Below are positions 31,001-45,563 of a stretch of 58,394 nucleotides of DNA, in pieces (the first letter of the stretch is position 1; every line of letters begins with the position of its first letter). The position numbers and the translations under genes were made by a program. Origin of the DNA: Girardia tigrina. Taxonomy: Eukaryota. The notes under the pieces were generated by a model. It saw only the letters and a program-made list of their open reading frames with translations, made no database searches and had not been told where the DNA came from. The DNA lies in NCBI GenBank assembly GCA_001938485.1, contig MQRK01228157.1, positions 1 through 58,394 of the forward strand. Reading direction: 5' to 3'.

Positions 31001-34000
31001 CAACGATTTTTCCAAGAAGATAGAAACTATGTTGAACTTGAATATTTTCGCTATCGAAGAGTGACGAGTAACCTAGAAATATCGAAATTTGAGATTCGTC
31101 TTTGAGTGATTATGTGTGGGGAATGATTTGAAAAAGGAAACGTTTTTTTTTCGGCTGTACAGAAATTTTATGATAACAGATTTGTTTATTTCGAGATTAA
31201 AAATTTGAATGTTGATTAAAAAAGAATTGAAAATTAAAAAAAGTTTCTTAATATATTTGAGAGTCTGAATTTATAAGGATTTTTGAAGCTCTAAATTTTA
31301 AATTTTAAATTTTGTGAAGACTATTGTGTATTAAAGTTGAAATTTTAAAGGCGAGTTGTGGAACGTAAATTTATTTTTATATTGAAGTTAAAAAGTGTTA
31401 AGTGTGTTAAAAAAGTAAAAGGATGTATTAAATGATAAAAATAAAGTACTTATAAAAAAGTTACCGAATTTATCATCAAAACTAAAAGAGGGCAGAAAAT
31501 TTATAGTTGATAGCTTTGAGGAAGTTGAAAGTTTACTAGAGAGATTATTTAGATGATCAGAAGTTACGACAGTGTCATTTCTTTCTTCAAGCTGGTGCAA
31601 GATTAATAATGGATTCATTGTCGCTGTACTCTGTTTTCCGATATTGACTGCTCCGTGAGTCTGATTTTCAGGCGCTATATTTGGTTATTGAACTTATATT
31701 CAGTCGGAATTGTGTTTTACCGAATAAACTCAAGAACGAGCATTAACTGTAACACCAATCGTTTGAAGAAGTGAATAGATTTATTTTTGAAATCTCGAAT
31801 TACCTCGGTCAATGCTGTCGACAAATATGATTCTCTTTTTTAAAATTCATCAGAACCATCCAGGCACGTTTCTCTGAATCGAAGGTCACGTTGACGTTTA
31901 ATTAATTATGTTTTAAACATTAAGTAAAAAACACGCGATCAAGTCAGTAAATTAACCTATTAGATGTATGTATACCTTTCGGGCAAAACTGTGAAGGGGT
32001 TAACAAAATAATTTTTCAAAAATATCAAATTCGCTTTTATAAGACTCAATATAAATATATGGGTACAATTTACATCAGAAAATGGTCATTTAAATATCGA
32101 GAATTAAAAGTTTCATTATAAATTTTACATATCGTACATTCATGATTATATTATTTCATTTCTTTTTTTAATTTATTTATTTAATCATGTTTTAAATTTT
32201 TAAATATGTAATTTTGGAATTAAACAATGATTATTCTTTTTCATTATCAAAGAAATTTGTTGAAGAAAGTCAATTTATGAACTTATCAAATAAAAAGTTG
32301 TATCTCAATGCAATCCAGTCGGCTCAGTATCCATATATCCCCCTTCTTGCAGAAACATTTTCTCATTTAACCCGCCTTAATGAAATCATGCCAACCTTCA
32401 TCAACAATACTTTGCCTGGTGTACAAAGCGTTAATTTTAAAAAGATGTGGCAATATTTTATCATCATTCAGTATTTTGTTGTAAAAATGCATTTACCTCC
32501 TGAGAAGAAGTAAGATTGTATTATAATTCGTTTTATAATAACTAACAATAATACTTAACTAATTTTATTTATTTAAAAAAAATATTTTTTTATAATTTAA
32601 TAAATCAGTATTATTTTTATTATATTTTCTGCCTTGTAAATTTTCTTTTTACAATTTTCGACATCGAATCGATTCTTTTCCAGAATTTGTGTATATTTTG
32701 GTGAATATTTCTATTTCAATGTCCCTGTGGATTTGACATATTTGGGAAGAAACGTACTTGTGTTAACCAAAGAAGAATTAATTATTAAATTAGATTATTT
32801 ATTAATGATAATTTTGATCGAAATTTATTACTAATTATTGTCAGCTGTGGAAAACGTTTCCAGTCTTTTAGATATTAAAATTTGTAAAATGAACCATAAG
32901 ACGTCATTTCTTCTAAATTACAAGCTCATGATTTGTAAAGTTGAAATAGTAAAAAATCTATTGGAAAGTTAAAAAGACAGTAAAATTAAAACAGCAATTG
33001 CAGAAATGGTCCCCAGTGAATGCATTCAATTTTTATTGTACAATTTACATCAGAAAATGGTCATTTAAATATCGAAAATTAAAAATTTTCATTATAATTA
33101 TGTTGTTGCAAAAGCAATGCAGGATTTTGAACCTGAACTTTAAACAAATGTAACTGAGCACAGAATAAACTTTATTAATCGAAATAGAAACCATCAGAAT
33201 CAATACAGTTTTGCCAATGAGAAACAAGTTTATTGATGCCCTAGTGTAGACCTCCTGAGTTCTGGATTTGAGGACGTTAAAGTCATCTTTGGCGTCGTCT
33301 TGGTTTTTGATGCAATTTTCCTGGAAATATTTGTCTAGATGCTTGAAAAAATGATAGTCAGTGGGCGAGAGGTCCGGCGAGTAGGATGGATAAGGCAGAG
33401 TTTCCTAGCTCAATTCGTTTAGCTTTTATAGTATCGGGTTTGAGATGTGTGGCCGGGCGTTGTCGTGGAGGAAAATTTGCCCCTTCATATTGACCAATCC
33501 CGGGCACATACGTCGGGGTTCGTCATGTATTTCGTTAATTTGTTGGTAGTGATCGTTTCACCCGTATTCAGAAAGCTGTGATAGATGAGATCGGCTACAG
33601 ACCACCAAACAGTCACTATAACCTTCTTTTGATGGAGTTTCGGTTTCGGAAAGTGGTGAGGACCCTCATTGCGGTTCAACCTTTGTACCAAACATCGCTG
33701 ATTATCGTTGAGAATTCACTTCTCATTACACGTCACAATCTAATCGAGAAATAGGTCGTTCTTGTTGCGCAGAAGAAGCGCTGAAGACACTTCAAAACGA
33801 AGACATTTTTGATTTTCGATCAATTCGTGAGGCATCCATTTATCGAGTTTTTTTGACTTTCCAATTTGCTTCAAGTGCCGAGAGACGGTTGACGGATCAA
33901 CGTTAAGGTCTTCTGTGAGTGCTCGAACAGTTGTGCATGGATCGGCTTCCACCAACTCCTTCAATTCTACGTTCTCAATTGTTGATAGGCGGCTGCCATG

Positions 34001-35418
34001 AGGCTTATCTTCCAGGCTGATATTGCCAGAGCGAAACTTGTGATACCAATGCTGAACAGTGGATTCGTTGACACTTCCCTTGCCCCAAACTTCATTCATG
34101 TTTTGAGTGGTATGAGATGCGTTACGTACCAGCTTGAACTCGTAGAAGTAAATGTTGCGAAAATCATGTTTTGACATCTGCAAATAAAATCAAAATTATT
34201 AAAAATAAGAAATAAGTTTTAGACAAATATATCTGAAAGAGTATAAATTAAGCTTTTAAATGACTCATAACATCAATCATTACATAACATAATACATGAT
34301 TTAGTCGTATAACGTTGCGGTAAATACAAAAAGAAATCAAAAACCTACATTCCTTTTGCAACAACCTAATATCTGTAGCTAAGGGTGGATCTTATCCTTG
34401 GAAAACGTTCCAAGTTTTGATAGGCAAAGTCTTGATCTCTTTTAAGTCTGCAAATGATTTTTGTCTAGAGACATAATGAGATTGGCTAACACAGTTTTAT
34501 AAAAAGCCCCTACTAAATTTTCACCATCACTTTTCTTTGATGGAACTCATGTGGTGTACGGTACTAAGACAAAATCTGAGCTGTGGTGTCGGTGCAATGA
34601 CGGTAATTTCCTTTGCCCAATTGATATGGAATATATTAAAAAAGCTTTTATACTTTTCAATTGACAGGAAAAGTGCTTATTGCCAATCTTAAAAGCCTCA
34701 GCAAGTTACAGTGTTGACTGATGCAAGTTCGATTTTGTAAGAGAACATTTGCAGTCTTTATTTTTTTACAGTGCCTTGACCAAATACGTTGTTAATGTGG
34801 CACTAGTTTGGACATCTTGGAGTCATATTGAAGACACATGCGTATTAAATATCCTGAAATTCACATTTTGTATTCCCTGAAATATTAAGCAATTAATTCG
34901 TTGAAAGAGCGTTTACATAAATATTTAACATATAGCATAATTCGTATAAGTGATTCGTCCAATCATATTAGAGTATTTTGACGTAACACATTGTGACGTA
35001 ATTGTCATCTTACTATAAAAACAATAACTTTCTAATTAAATACAGAAATGAAGATTCCACAAAAGTGGCGAAGCATGTTTTCCAATAAAAATTTAAAGTT
35101 GAAATGGTGTTAATTGAGTTTATATAGCATAATAAAAGTTATGAAATGATCGATATGTTTTCCACGACCGAATTTGTTTTAAGATTAGTATTGTAATTAT
35201 TATATCAATTTTTGTTATAAAAAAAGAAACGTAATTGAATTAATATTTATCCGTTTAGATATTATCAGTTCAGAATAGATGTTGACGTTTTAGCTTTTAT
35301 CAACAACTTTCAAGATGCTCTATCAGAAACAGAACTTTTTGAGTACAAAGAAAAACTGATAAGATCAAAAAGTAAAAAACTTTATCAAAGAGAACAATCA
35401 TATTGTACAGATTTATAA
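17820..35418 (+). CDS. RAPGEF1: RAPGEF1/C3G-like Rap guanine nucleotide exchange factor (REM + CDC25 RasGEF domains); 5' end undetermined
   Basis: Phase-consistent GT-AG exons 17820-17934, 19958-20042, 20126-20331, 26250-26458, 29100-29190, 29249-29422, 29464-29559, 32253-32509, 35259-35418 (TAA). Peptides AGQIDTLIAHA, KAFVVTYPLFIKTDDLLNKLIKRY, ILDFDSQVVAEQLTLLE, HFFNKLTFWV, HQNFSGY, PYIPLL, VNFKKMWQYF and FINNFQDALSETELF follow the C3G domain order. Orthology is inferred from recalled motifs. Confidence 0.85.
18815..19038. mobile_element. Pogo/Tigger-type MITE with ~65-bp TIRs
   Basis: TA|CAGTCCGACCTCGCTTTTGGGGAAACCTCG ... CGAGGTTTCCCCAAAAGCGAGGTCGGACTG|TA, plus an extra internal TIR start at 18885-18911. 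Confidence 0.85.
19112..19287. repeat. Long imperfect palindrome (~82-bp arms, ~12-nt loop)
   Basis: ACGGGATATTATTTTTAAACTCAAAGCATTATCTAACGCTTTCAAAATA ... TATTTTGAAAGCGTTAGATAATGCTTTGAGTTTAAAAGTAATATCCCGT. Confidence 0.85.
19290..19760 (+). mobile_element. Penelope-like element 3' part (GIY-YIG endonuclease + HHR)
   Basis: ORF 19308-19604: IYQY...YFGETSRHL...NIVGHRKHC...FKILC...KRVTCEALYI...PKIN, followed by an HHR. Confidence 0.85.
19677..19715 (+). ncRNA. Minimal type I hammerhead ribozyme
   Basis: GUU-CUGACGA-U-GACGG-UUAAA-CCGUC-GAAA-UUUA-UA-AAU, with a predicted AUA cleavage triplet. Confidence 0.85.
21458..22797. repeat. Pair of ~140-bp direct repeats (about 21458-21597 and 22654-22797)
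   Basis: Both read TTAAAATTGTATAAATATAATATTAAAAAAAGTTACT...CACTTTGTCTTACCCAATTGAAATATTTATTTATTCAAGGATTAATTTATTG. Confidence 0.85.
23329..23835 (-). mobile_element. Solo LTR (TGTGAGGAATA family)
   Basis: Colinear with 49040-49597; minus-strand start TGTGAGGAATATTTT; TATA on both flanks (possible TSD). Confidence 0.6.
27682..28927 (-). mobile_element. Mariner element, full length, decayed
   Basis: TIRs TGGTGCTTTCAATAAATACCC / GGGTACTTATTGAACGCACCATG|TA; LHDNAPVH, ISVGTAH and RKLCFRIITRFLT motifs. Confidence 0.85.
29790..30010 (-). mobile_element. Possible CR1-like LINE RT relic
   Basis: Weak SGLP..LSPTL and EKDL(G)IV-like remnants on the minus strand. Confidence 0.3.
30080..30556. repeat. 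AT-rich dispersed repeat, copy 2
   Basis: Colinear with 4026-4619 but with fewer internal tandem units. Confidence 0.8.
33098..34369 (-). mobile_element. Mariner (Mos1/SETMAR-like) element, full length, frameshifted
   Basis: TIRs TTAGGTTGTTGCAAAAGGAATG / TTATGTTGTTGCAAAAGCAATG. ORFs 33740-34183 (KKLDKWMPHEL) and 33485-33691 (PKPKLHQKKVIVTVWW), then HDNARPH and YSPDLSPTDY. Confidence 0.95.
34948..35112 (+). mobile_element. Very short Penelope-like 3' fragment with mutated HHR
   Basis: AGTGATTCGTCCAATCATATTAGAGTATTTTGA equals the SDSSNHIRVF* end of ORF 43817-44185. The HHR at 35045-35082 has core changes (AUGAAGA, GAAG). Confidence 0.85.
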
Positions 35419-37539: not shown

Positions 37540-38000
37540 TCGTCAAAATTTATTGTGATTAATTTCGACGGATCAACCGTCATCATCAGATTGAATTAAC
37601 AATGATATACTCGCGTTTATATATCAAAGCAATGTTTATGTAATCATTATGTCATTTAAATCATGAAAANNNNNNNNNNNNNNNNNNNNNNNNNNNNNNN
37701 NNNNNNNNNNNNNNNNNNNNNNNNNNNNNNNNNNNNNNNNNNNNNNNNNNNNNNNNNNNNNNNNNNNNNNNNNNNNNNNNNNNNNNNNNNNNNNNNTTAC
37801 ATCAACTTTACTATTCAAACAGTTCTTCTTATGTTGAGCAATATTACTATCACTTTCCCTGTGATTATGTTCCTGAATCCGTTTACAGAGATGACGACAA
37901 GTCTCTCCGATGTATATGGTGTCCCACCCATTACATTTATATTGATAAACTAAATTTGAACATAACCCAGTTGGAGTGATAGATTTACTACTAAACAAAT
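37540..38000 (-). mobile_element. Penelope-like element 3' part (GIY-YIG + HHR), spans a gap
   Basis: NLVYQYKCNGWDTIYIGETCRHLCKRIQEH...SNIAQHKKNC, with an HHR downstream. Confidence 0.88.
37555..37593 (-). ncRNA. Minimal type I hammerhead ribozyme
   Basis: Minus strand CUGAUGA-U-GACGG-UUGAU-CCGUC-GAAA-UUAA-UC; palindromic stem III, weak stem I. Confidence 0.82.
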
Positions 38001-38089
38001 CTAATTAATCATGATGATTAATAATTATACATGATGAAATTAATCTCAATAAATTTTGACGAAAATTAATTTTAATTGTTAATTTTAAA

Positions 38090-38263: not shown

Positions 38264-38789
38264 ATGACGAAAGGCTGCAGTAAAACATTGTGAAATATTA
38301 ATTAATTAATTAAGAAAAAAATAATTACCAAAAACCACAAGATTTCTTTGTCCATCCAGGTTGCTAAAATAAAATATATAACCAAGATTCATGATGAATC
38401 AACTAACATAAATCACTAGACCATCATACAATTTCACCCCGTCGCAAACACATCCGCTGGTTTAACAATTTTTAAGCCAAAAAATACAAACTTATCAAAT
38501 TATTCTAATTATGTCCGAATAGACAGCATGTAAAAGATCTCCAGAAGGACACCTAAAACTATTGTAGTAGAAACAATTACATTACAGACGTTGGCGATAT
38601 CATAGAGTGATCTGAAATAAGGATACATAAACCACAATTAAACATCATAAATACACATGCCATGTTTGGTGCACATTTTGATTCTCTATCCGACTGTGCA
38701 TACAGATTTTTCATTTATTGATTCAAGTTTCAAAACAAAAATATGATATCTATAAATATTTACAACATACAACTTCATTAGTCTAAAAA

Positions 38790-39149
38790 ATATAGTCAAC
38801 AACATGTTACAACAAATCACTGTAGTTTACATCCTTCAAACTAGTGATTATAATTTTCACCAGTATGAAAAACATTTACACATAAAGGGTTGAAACCTTT
38901 TAATCTCAGTGAAAGAAACAATTCAGGTTCATATAGACTTATATTATTCCTTACCAAAGCAACGAGATTAATATGTTGATCATAATCACATGTCACTGTA
39001 AAAGATTGTATACTGACATTGGTGATGTTGTAAGGCAAACTGGATGGATCAATAGGTTGTTTGCAGTCCATTATTCGGCATTTTCAACTGCTGAAATATA
39101 AAATAGTGTATTCTGGAAAGTGTAAAACACATTGGCATGGTTTTAAGCA
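38790..39149 (-). pseudogene. Divergent TATA-binding-protein-like ORF relic
   Basis: CLKPCQCVLHFPEYTILYFSS*KCRIMD...VSIQSFTVTCDYDQHINLVAL...LYEPELFLSLRLKGFNPLCVNVFHTG(frameshift)KIIITSL parallels TBP TALIFSSGKMVCTG / KIQNMVGSCD..IRLEGL / YEPELFPGL / LIFVSGKVVLTG. Confidence 0.75.
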
Positions 39150-40290
39150 AAAATCGAGTTTATTAATAGAATTTAAAAAAGTGAGATAACTTCATCTTTT
39201 TAAAATTGTAATTATTTTATTTTTTTAAATTATTATTTATAGGCACTAATTTTTTATAAAAACAAGGCAAAGAAATTCAACAAATTGTCATTCAACATGA
39301 TTAAGATAATGTTTTTGGGTAAGAAGAAGGAGGCAAATTATAAAAAAGATAACAATATGTATAATAATTCAATTTAAATTCTGAAACAAGGATAAATAAC
39401 TAAACAGGCTGAATAAAATTACTTTGGATGTCTAAAGTACAACAATGCGTCTCAATACAATAAGCAATTCATTGCTTTTAATTGAAAAAGAATGTGGAAG
39501 TAGCTTGTGGAACGTGATTAAGACTAACTTTGTAACACAATTTAATATAATCATGCACTATTTTATTGTTTTCTAATATAATATAAAGGATATGAAGTTT
39601 TATAGCGTTTTATATGATAAATTAACTGACAAATGTTATTGCTGCTTAATAAATGTTAGGAAATATTGTGAGAAATTTTAATTTATTCCTTTTTTCATTC
39701 CCCATTAAAAAGCCGATTGAAATAACATTTTAATGATAACAGAGTTTCAGTAATTATTCCTTGAAAAAATATTTTTTTAGGTTGGTTAACTTTAAAAAAG
39801 AAATTAAAAAATTATATCAATAAATTTTATTTAATTATTTTAATTTATGAAAATTAATAAGGTGGTCATTATGAAACAGGAAACTTTTATTAATATTACT
39901 TGAATTATTTTTTATACACGGAATATACTCTTATTAATCGCCATTATCATATACTTCATGAATACTTTTACTGTTGACTTTATGGCGAAATTATAACAAT
40001 TATCTGAATTTTAAAGGTCAGTTATGATTGCTGTTAGGAATTCTGAAATGTTATTAAAAATTTTTGAAAGATTATAAAATTAAATATTCCAATTGTTATG
40101 TAGAAAATTTATAAAATATGTAATTATTTGATGATTGTTAGGTACGTCATAATTTTTAAAAATCAGAAGTTGATATTTTTAAAGCTTTTATTTAATAACA
40201 ACAAAATAAAAAAAATTTTTAAACAAGTTTTTTAAATAAATTTCCCAAGAACTCTTCACTTTCCTTGAACAAATCATTTATACATACATA

Positions 40291-41400
40291 TTATGTTGGT
40301 CGAGAAATAATGGCGGTTTTGGGACACAAACTTCAAAGACGTGCAAATTCACAGAAACAAAAGTTTATTAATCAAAGTATGAACCGTTGGCATCAATACA
40401 TTTTTGCCAACGANNNNNNNNNNNNNNNNNNNNNNNNNNNNNNNNNNNNNNNNNNNNNNNNNNNNNNNNNNNNNNNNNNNNNNNNNNNNNNNNNNNNNNN
40501 NNNNNNNNNNNNNNNNNNNNNNNNNNNNNNNNNNNNNNNNNNNNNNNNNNNNNNNNNNNNNNNNNNNNNNNNNNNNNNNNNAGGGTTTCATAGCCCAACT
40601 CATTAAGCTTTTGAAGAGTCACTTTTGAAATATGAGGTCTAGCGTTTTCATGAAGAAGGATGGGACTTTTTCGATTGACCAATCCCGGACAAAGGGTTTT
40701 TAATTTTTTATGCACTTAATCAATTCCATGACAGTACCTCTCCGTTGTGATTGTTTCCCCTGGATTCAAGAAACTATAGTGATGATTCCAGCATCACACC
40801 ACCAAACTGTCACCATAACCTTACGGGGTGTTAGTTTCGGTTTTGTAAAGTGTTTCGGTACTTCCTTTTTATCCAACCACTGTGCAGATCGACGTCGGAT
40901 ATCATACAGGATCCATTTCTCATCACAGGTAACAATACGATCAAGAAATGGATCGTTTTTTATTGCTAAGATGAATGGCAGAACAAATTTCACAGCGTCG
41001 TTTCTTTTGATTTTCATTCAAATCATGTGGAACCCATTTATCAAGTTTCTTGATTTTTCCAAGTTGTTTTAAATAATCCAGGACTGTTGAATAACTAATG
41101 CCCAACCCATCTGCAAGTTCTTTGATTGTTGTACGGGGATCTGTTTCCACCATTGTCCTCAAATTGTCTTTGTTCACAGCAACTGGACGACCACGACCTT
41201 CTTCATCTTCAAGGTTTTCATCTCCATCAGAAAATTTTCGGAACCATCGTTGCACTGTGCGCTCAGAAGATGTTCCCTTGCCAAACGCTTTATTGATATT
41301 GTGAGCCGTTTCTGCTGCTTTACAACCCAGTTTAAATTCGTACAAGAAAATTGCTCGAATTTTATTTTTTTCCATTATTAATTTAGAACCGTAAATATTC
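40291..41400 (-). mobile_element. Mariner element, frameshifted, spans a gap
   Basis: IRAIFLYEFKLG, KKLDKWVPHDL, RIVTCDEKWILY and LLHENARPH motifs; 3' TIR TTATGTTGGTCGAGAAATAATG. Confidence 0.93.
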
Positions 41401-43676: not shown

Positions 43677-44200
43677 AAACAAAAATAACACCATTTTAAT
43701 TTTAAATTTTTATTGGAAAACATGTTTCGCCACTTTTGTGGCATCTTCAGTTCTGTATTTAATTGGAAAGTTATTGTTTATATTGAAAGATGACCATTAC
43801 GTCACAGTGTGTTACGTCAAAATACTCTAATATGATTGGACGAATCACTTTGCCCATTTAGACTAGGTTTACAAAACTTTATCAAGAGTGCTTCAGTAAT
43901 TGTCCTTTCATAATTGTGATCAAAGTTACTAATCAAAACCCGAAAATCATTATCAAATACCCTCCTTTGAGTTCCATGACATTTCACTATGTGGTCCAAA
44001 ATTGAGCTTTTTCTACTTGATTTGGTATGTTCTACAATTCTAGTACGGAGGTGACGATTTGTCTCTCCAATGTACAAGGATTCATACTTGTGACATTTAT
44101 ATTGGTAAACTAAATTTGCTTTCATACCCAATTGTGTTTTAGATTTATTTGAGAAGTAATTAGAAATTTCATTAGTTAGAAACAATACTTTAATACCAAT
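43677..44200 (-). mobile_element. Penelope-like element 3' part (open GIY-YIG frame + HHR)
   Basis: ORF 43817-44185: NLVYQYKC...YIGETNRHLRTRIVEH...SSILDH...TITEALLIKFCKPSLN. The 3' UTR contains an HHR and abuts a (TA)n tract. Confidence 0.92.
43716..43753 (-). ncRNA. Minimal type I hammerhead ribozyme
   Basis: Same sequence as 8130-8167 on the minus strand. Confidence 0.85.
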
Positions 44201-45563
44201 ATAAATGTTTTTTTTCTTTTAATATAAAGGACTCTATAAATTTTACAGTTATGGATTCTTTTAAATAAAATCATATCAACTACTACAGTTTAATTGAACG
44301 TCATGCAATGTTTTACTTTTTCCATTATGTATTTTTGGTAAAATATCTTGCGGTAAACTGTGATGATACAATTAAAAGATATCAAATTCCGAATGATTTA
44401 GAAGGGATTGTTTTAAGATTGATCAAATTTATAATTTTATGAATAAAGTATGTACATGTTCTTATTAATATTTTAATAAATTATGTTGATAAATCTTTCA
44501 TAAATGAATTCATAACATAATTTTGGACCAATTGATAAGAAACAAAATTAAATTAAGCATTATAAAAAGGAAATGCAAAAAATTATATGTGCTCTCGCAA
44601 AGAACACATATCCAGATAACAAAAGTATTTCGAGTAATGAGTTGTGATTTAAAGAGAAAAAAAGCAATTACAATAATTAAATACAGCAGATTTTGCTTGA
44701 AGAGAACAAAATCAGTTAAAGAGAACGTCTTGAGAATTTTTTTTTCAAAGTAAAATAACTGAGTTTATTTTTTAATGTGAAGATTAGTAAAGTTTTTTAA
44801 TATATTTTAAAAAATATCCTTATGAAAAGAATCAGGTAAAAAGAACATTTTTAGGACTTTTAAAAAATGTTCCCTTAGAATGTTATCTTAGAGCATTAAA
44901 ATATTAACTATTCAAGATTATTATTAATTAAAATGTTTAGCTTCACTTTAACTTAGATTTAAAATGTATTTTTACTCGTGTTAATTTACAAAATGACTAA
45001 ATTCTTTAAAAGTTTAATAAATTGAGACAAAAACAAAAGTGCTTTAAAGTCGAAATGTAAGTCACTGGATTGACATGATAACTAAGAAAGGTGCCATGTC
45101 ACCCATTGACTGTTACTGTAGTTCTACTGACAGTGTCAAAAGACAGGAGCACTACTAACGACAGATTGATTATAAGTGGGTTTTTATATGGAATTGTGTA
45201 CATTTAAACATATCATTAATTTTAATTACTGTTGTAATTTTCTTTATTATTTAAAATCACTTATTATTTCTAAAATATTAGTTAAATTAAACTCTCATTT
45301 TTTAGTTAATAATATTATTTTTCTAATTTTAGAAAGCATTTAATTACAATTTAATTTTAATCAAATTCACAAATTTAGATAAAATTAAAGATATGTTAGT
45401 TTTTTAAATTATATCTCAGCAATAAAAATGGCTTGTTTTAATTGTTACAGATTGTGAAAAATCAAGTTGTTTCAGATTTGTGATGATCATTTTTAAGAAG
45501 ATGTTAAGCTTTTTTTCATCAGTAAACTTACAGATAAAAGTCGATCAACATACTAATAATTTG

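Follow-up and report, generated by a model that had tools for sequence, protein, structure and literature searches.

TBP-like proteins have been described from large dsDNA viruses, where, according to passages of the study concerned, they frequently have a viral TFIIB as their partner (Ravarani et al., 2020; PMC7221094). In the same passages, helix H2 of TBP carries the basic patch used by TFIIA, TAF1, Mot1 and Brf, and the relevant passages do not name Polintons. Another viral TBP, KSHV ORF24, reads TATTWAA late promoters through a polar interface, according to the pertinent part of a separate study (PMC12529657). Altered specificity has also been obtained in the laboratory mutant TBPm3, for which the relevant part of the source names I194, V203 and L205 as the positions responsible (PMC1636458). 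For adintoviruses, “TBP” appears in Starrett et al. as a bare figure-legend label only, and their maps may show the gene considered below; the text covered is silent on the TBP gene and the YATAAAC motif, on TFIIB genes and on any split between two units bounded by terminal inverted repeats (TIRs), and TBP is absent from the portion of the supplement searched (Starrett et al., 2021; PMC8502044). A literature search combining Polintons and adintoviruses with TBP or TFIIB, promoters, segmentation and planarians, based in part on partial texts and with subscription journals and Repbase outside its scope, found no account of this gene, motif or split. The main text of a coral polintovirus paper contains no TATA, TBP or TFIIB. 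The question addressed here is how animal Polintons and adintoviruses control the timing of capsid-gene expression when they have no RNA polymerase.

The window, that is, the whole stretch of DNA analyzed, comprises 58,394 nucleotides of Girardia tigrina (contig MQRK01228157.1, positions 1 to 58,394; assembly GCA_001938485.1). It contains a stretch that is almost certainly the relic of a Polinton gene for a small TBP, hereafter mini-TBP, with the following features.

38746..39164, minus strand: decayed Polinton mini-TBP gene, with 77-82% DNA identity to copies in the same genome, a Pfam TBP match and 67% tblastn identity over 116 aa.
39084..39143, minus strand: remnant of the reduced N-terminal TBP lobe, comprising the strand region up to the FSS signature and the stop codon.
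38916..38933, minus strand: YEPELF, stirrup of the C-lobe, which includes both TFIIB-contact glutamates (signature as defined in the relevant passages of PMC7221094).
38859..38870, minus strand: FHTG, the second-repeat signature, right behind which the frame breaks.
38844..39071, minus strand: residual 76-aa ORF with an ATG, a by-product of the breaks and not the gene itself.
38640..38723, no strand assigned: piece of the inner TIR, common to both unit types described below, which matches 21 of 26 element ends.

On the minus strand, the FSS signature (39095-39087) is followed by an in-frame TGA (39086-39084), and homology beyond FHTG (38870-38859) runs on in a different frame to about 38789, with the frameshift near 38859. 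The 5′ end is missing; there is no start, and the first ~15-20 codons are unrecognisable. The preliminary description had picked out both TBP repeat signatures, YEPELF, this TGA, a frame change and a 76-aa ORF, and each of these was borne out (the ORF at 39071-38844), although DNA homology to sister copies (38746-39164) extends slightly beyond the 38790..39149 first delimited. The TBP-domain search proposed there, with the repaired peptide carrying X at the stop, gave a Pfam TBP match of 26.9 bits (E 4.5e-6; cut-off 22.9 bits), and the unaltered 80-aa open stretch alone matched at E 2.1e-5. With a profile built only from 17 TBPs outside the family (eukaryotic, archaeal and other), the TBP fragment was the single match in the window, at 13.9 bits, whereas none of 200 shuffles exceeded 5.0 bits; a chance match is thus excluded. 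The window copy is a dead fragment of an intronless TBP gene of ~145 aa, as which it does not make the full protein, and in itself it is a fossil only. Within the window, no element ends, target-site duplication (TSD) or other Polinton genes were found; what remains is the TBP gene and 60-85 bp of inner TIR, which is 73-96% identical to the 21 matching element ends, mostly over 60-85 bp, and whose orientation implies that the lost terminus lay downstream of the TBP gene. Decayed mariner transposases and fragments of GIY-YIG (Penelope-like) endonucleases, ordinary repeats, lie at 40368-41399, 33045-34189, 37800-38004 and 43820-44218; the mariner (40368-41399) and GIY-YIG ORFs flanking the TBP fragment are separate, unrelated elements.

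The gene had been called an orphan, a view that did not hold. With the 80-aa open stretch as query, 1,324 candidate matches were found in the same genome; all 150 of those scored match, at 63-79% identity with the window itself set apart, and a further 65 homologues lie outside this genome. Among the best 150 representatives at 50% identity, most belong to the mini-TBP family. Intact copies, for which a search had been suggested, are plentiful: many are open ORFs of ~144 aa with two Pfam TBP stretches (E 6.8e-18), and an open sister copy scores 64.7 bits over two stretches (cut-off 22.9). The window copy shares at most ~82% DNA identity with the copies examined and is therefore either old or from a further sublineage. 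Between the window copy and the two main sublineages (16 and 5 open copies sampled), dN/dS is 0.22 and 0.26; it is 0.21 between sublineages A and B, 0.51 within A and 0.20 within B. The values of 0.21-0.26 between lineages show that purifying selection acted on this lineage before the window copy died.

It is exceedingly improbable that the stretch instead derives from a host TBP or TRF gene, as a decayed retrocopy or paralogue, or is a chance match. Other intronless TBP-family ORFs do exist in the assembly, and two such types (L054-L057 and L058-L059, four contigs each) belong neither to the mini-TBP clade nor to the canonical group; those of L054-L057 may originate from a co-sequenced organism. 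In a quick LG+G4 search over 79 of 108 rows (the 29 dropped being redundant, partial or odd), the window row nevertheless groups with copies from its own genome (support 98) inside a 51-row clade with a long stem (SH-aLRT 100), the family rows having been gathered with the family's own profile and the position of the root within the family being unreliable. This clade is separate from five non-family TBP rows of the same genome and from eukaryotic and archaeal TBPs, and the three intron-bearing host TBPs of the genome group with eukaryotic TBPs. Multicopy status, Polinton context and the tree together refute an origin from a host paralogue or by chance, as does the shuffle control for the latter, and the earlier view of an intronless TBP-fold gene that is no recent retrocopy of host TBP is upheld by this phylogeny, which had been called for.

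The predicted structure of a natural open sister copy, obtained with a 51-row alignment, has a pLDDT of 93.7. In a fold search with this model, TBPs hold the top ranks with a full-length match (Z 14.5, rmsd 2.1, 141 residues aligned), and comparison with residues 66-239 of yeast TBP aligns 144 residues (Z 13.8, rmsd 2.6). Mini-TBP is thus, as modelled, a two-lobed TBP saddle, and within the joint reading set out below it would be among the smallest of these. Its C-lobe is complete; the N-lobe strands are present in the model, with helices H1 and H2 both missing. The N-lobe spacing is 48-59 in 69 of 83 rows versus a canonical 66, and more distant family members retain the N-lobe helices. As H2 carries the patch for TFIIA, TAF1, Mot1 and Brf, mini-TBP would be expected to escape those regulators.

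Residues were counted over 188 family rows, at positions given in what we take to be yeast TBP numbering, mapped by motif. Three of the four kinking (intercalating) phenylalanines are present in the family, at the positions of F116 (165/167), F190 (183/185) and F207 (183/183); at the F99 position, where the alignment is loose, Phe is not among the common letters. The TFIIB-contact glutamates are retained at E186 (169/185) and E188 (182/185). On the DNA-facing side, all three TBPm3 positions are changed: I194 is R in 146/186 rows, V203 is C in 146/183 and L205 is N in 181/183. Furthermore, V122 is R in 167/168 rows, T124 is M in 181/181, the V71 position is polar, and the canonical R196 is not retained. 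Owing to the loss of R196 and of Phe at the F99 position, DNA binding could be weak or different. To judge from its sequence, mini-TBP may be an altered-specificity TBP of natural origin, with substitutions at the three positions that are mutated in TBPm3, and it is a candidate orthogonal promoter factor.

The element that carries mini-TBP is a Polinton/Maverick (adintovirus). A virus-like or transposable carrier had been anticipated correctly; the further epithet “uncharacterised” did not stand, given a protein-primed PolB (pPolB), an rve integrase, an A32-type ATPase, adenain, AGTAG termini and 6-bp TSDs. Polinton ends are long TIRs that start with AG and are flanked by a 6-bp TSD. Here, the element ends start with AGTAG and are 75-93% alike over several hundred bases, and seven units have matching 6-bp target-site flanks (six exact, one with a mismatch). 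The inspection of neighbouring genes proposed in the preliminary description gave a divided answer. In the same genome, 69 TBP loci on 65 contigs have as neighbours an SSB gene (35), PolB (16), a Cys-rich ORF (13) or an ATPase (5, on 3 contigs), and none has an integrase or capsid-like gene; the rve integrase, A32-type ATPase and adenain genes of this genome lie on sister units with the same ends. Among metagenome loci of the family, 10 of 25 carry ATPase, integrase, capsid-like genes, adenain or PolB, with baits for this census taken from three of the same 25 loci. Pfam identifies adenain, A32, rve, DNA_pol_B_2 and PLA2 in three TBP-bearing metagenome loci (L071, L078 and L086), and one L086 contig holds both the PolB and the integrase/capsid gene classes. 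The PolB of L086 matches PF03175 at E 2e-21, and the 16 PolB-bearing loci among the 69 are tblastn matches to it. PolB fragments, SSB and capsid-like ORFs of the planarian genome are unrecognised by Pfam; the labels “hexon” and “penton” are likewise without a Pfam match and are our presumption from size and gene order. None of the elements examined showed a gene for an RNA polymerase.

The SSB gene lies head-to-head with the TBP gene, and its product has the fold of T7 gp2.5/Enc34-type SSBs (Z 8.3-8.9 in a fold search, with rmsd 2.9 over 108 aligned residues at Z 8.9). In a sister copy, the SSB ORF and the TBP ORF are both covered, at 85% likeness, by contigs from four RNA or guessed-RNA runs; the cover has a gap at L030 1314-1355, where one run flags skipped repeats, and such contigs are not proof of transcription. 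Several side observations concern the same elements. In two loci the TBP gene is present twice, as inverted arms with an SSB fragment between them, which is a foldback derivative (L031:3875-6163 and L050:200-2760). Arrays of GTTRCCATGGYAAC-type palindromes, which we take to resemble RFX X-boxes, lie just inside most element ends (for example L022:2171-2276, L039:3030-3093 and L173:5490-5532). Leucine-rich-repeat-like ORFs with a hydrophobic leader are found downstream of mini-TBP in two metagenome loci (L074:1609-1971 and L081:1304-1843).

In 15 TBP-bearing metagenome loci, the heptamer YATAAAC, which had been spotted by eye in upstream stretches of largely the same loci as were later counted, occurs 64 times in sense and twice in antisense (sense being the strand of the TBP gene and of most ORFs), and 11 sibling heptamer classes are strand-balanced. 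It stands 20-50 nt before an ATG in 36 of 64 cases versus 10 of 99 controls, with a peak at 33-37 nt. The motif precedes the ATPase (9/11), the conserved ORF after the ATPase (4/5) and the penton-like (5/7), hexon-like (3/5) and exonuclease-like (3/4) genes; counts are 4/8 for integrase, 1/3 for adenain, 0/4 for core, 1/18 for TBP and 0/5 for SSB, with one further SSB that has the motif (L065). Sense-to-antisense ratios in planarian late-type stretches are 7:0, 5:0, 3:0 and 2:0; in early-type stretches they are 1:1 and 0:0, and the whole window gives 15:25. A role as poly(A) signal or stop codon was considered and rejected, since no more than 13 of the 64 occurrences terminate an ORF, and several are located within the upstream ORF at a fixed distance from the next ATG. 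Alternatively, the motif may belong to Polintons at large, with a host factor as its reader. In viral contigs scanned for TBP-less Polintons, the hexon-like and ATPase queries had no relatives, and the mini-TBP alignment found only 5 distant TBPs.

How the two gene classes are arranged was assessed on 156 contigs of the planarian genome, 62 of which carry element ends. Seven complete, TSD-matched units were found: four have PolB/SSB/TBP-type genes only (5.9-8.9 kb), three have ATPase/integrase/capsid-type genes only (3.0-9.0 kb), and none has both. As the complete units are of one type only and share their ends, a two-segment Polinton is suggested, which is the simplest reading for family B and the arrangement that we favor. 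That the two unit types are instead independent deletion derivatives of one full-length Polinton is possible, though we would not call it probable: most copies are deleted to varying extents, the assembly is fragmented and loci were chosen by top score, and, of six contigs with both gene classes, three short ones (family A) link ATPase, SSB and TBP directly, the remaining three having them kilobases apart. Independent deletions sit less well with the absence of mixed units among the seven, or with the first gene inside the terminus being the ATPase 14 times and the last being TBP 21 times and PolB 7 times. Moreover, none of 20 PolB-picked stretches has late genes, the single early-type fragment on 20 ATPase-picked contigs lies outside the unit, and the family A ATPase shares only ~85% identity with late-unit ATPases. 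If true, the two-segment plan, with its split into two TIR-bounded units, would be unusual for Polintons and adintoviruses. The PolB-type units themselves occur in two layouts, with the block of Cys-rich ORF and PolB inverted relative to the TBP/SSB block, like genome isomers (L039/L276, L047/L278, L038/L289 and L324).

An intronless TFIIB gene is linked to late genes in seven loci (Pfam TFIIB and zinc ribbon; 70 matches), whose ATPases are mostly 92-96% identical to late-unit ATPases. At full length (L205:4012-4881, minus strand; L202:4908-5765, minus strand; L206; L199; L224), it encodes a zinc ribbon and two repeats with the conserved Arg and Thr, and it lies ~900 bp upstream of the Polinton late genes in divergent orientation. 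A single close match was found in the databases, at 94% identity, with the rest at ~30%, so a lineage-specific capture is likely. TBP and TFIIB were not found on one element; on contig C194519, a TFIIB fragment lies about 6 kb from a TBP gene, possibly by chance. More divergent multicopy TFIIB-like ORFs also occur (L208, L212, L217, L211, L213 and L228-L233), and a Polinton-type palindrome lies ~2.3 kb downstream of that in L212.

The strand and position bias of YATAAAC before late-gene ATGs points to mini-TBP as the probable late-promoter factor of the element for capsid and packaging genes, with YATAAAC as its predicted target. Mini-TBP would bind this variant TATA box, as its specific reader, and bring TFIIB and the RNA polymerase II of the host to these genes late in the cycle; in the planarian genome, PolB/SSB-type units would supply the protein in trans to ATPase/integrase/capsid-type units that share their ends. 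Against such a role, most planarian TBP copies accompany replication genes and not late genes. A complex predicted, without DNA, between an open copy of mini-TBP and the core of the Polinton-linked TFIIB scored 0.00 and speaks neither for nor against the pairing. A 145-aa TBP and a 7-bp motif form a directly testable late-promoter candidate. Taken together, and only tentatively, these elements could represent a two-segment Polinton virus with its own initiation kit, in which a replication segment (pPolB, SSB and mini-TBP) and a virion segment (ATPase, integrase and capsid genes, some with captured TFIIB) share common termini and mini-TBP, freed of host regulators, reads YATAAAC and fires the late genes in trans via host Pol II.

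Mini-TBP might instead be a decoy that binds host TFIIB or Brf through its intact stirrup and damps host transcription, YATAAAC being read by host TBP or another host factor. The stirrup glutamates are indeed the best-kept interaction surface, the DNA-facing surface is much altered, and the motif is found on late-type units that have no TBP gene in cis. We nonetheless consider a decoy unlikely, because the altered DNA-facing residues are nearly invariant (N 181/183, R 167/168 and M 181/181), which fits a new specificity better than decay; the three kinking phenylalanines are retained, and the terminal C of YATAAAC departs from the canonical TATA box, TATAWAWR. Still less probable is a service in replication, by which mini-TBP would bind termini or single-stranded DNA together with SSB and pPolB. 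Its head-to-head placement with a gp2.5/Enc34-type SSB gene on PolB-type units speaks for such a role, as does a Giardia TBP without key Phe residues, which prefers ssDNA according to the relevant part of the source (PMC12209930). In other hosts, however, the gene follows adenain or exonuclease-like genes or directly precedes the ATPase; moreover, replication has no need of a TFIIB stirrup and leaves YATAAAC unexplained.

The late-promoter factor thus favored can be set against several known systems. With cellular TBP (PF00352; yeast 1ytb, human 1cdw, M. jannaschii 2z8u), mini-TBP shares the two-lobed saddle, three kinking phenylalanines and the YEPELFP stirrup; unlike it, mini-TBP is ~30 residues shorter, lacks the N-lobe helices H1 and H2 in its own subclade, has lost the F99 position, is polar at V71, V122, I194, V203 and L205, and is multicopy and mobile. 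Like mini-TBP, the TBP-like proteins of large dsDNA viruses retain the L5.1 Phe, and their N-lobe regulatory patch has diverged; the TFIIB-contact glutamate is only ~40% conserved in those proteins, according to the passages concerned, versus 91-98% in the mini-TBP family (Ravarani et al., 2020; PMC7221094). With adintoviruses, as portrayed in the text covered, the elements share pPolB, rve integrase, packaging ATPase, adenain, capsid-like genes and TIRs (Starrett et al., 2021; PMC8502044). The beta- and gammaherpesvirus vTBPs, such as KSHV ORF24 and EBV BcRF1, likewise represent a viral TBP without a viral RNA polymerase, with a polar DNA interface and a variant TATA before late genes, the last being a prediction for mini-TBP. 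ORF24, as characterized in the relevant part of that study, is large and multidomain, makes direct contact with Pol II as part of a six-protein complex, and has a model incompatible with TFIIB binding (PMC12529657), whereas the Polinton mini-TBP is a bare 145-aa core that retains the TFIIB stirrup.
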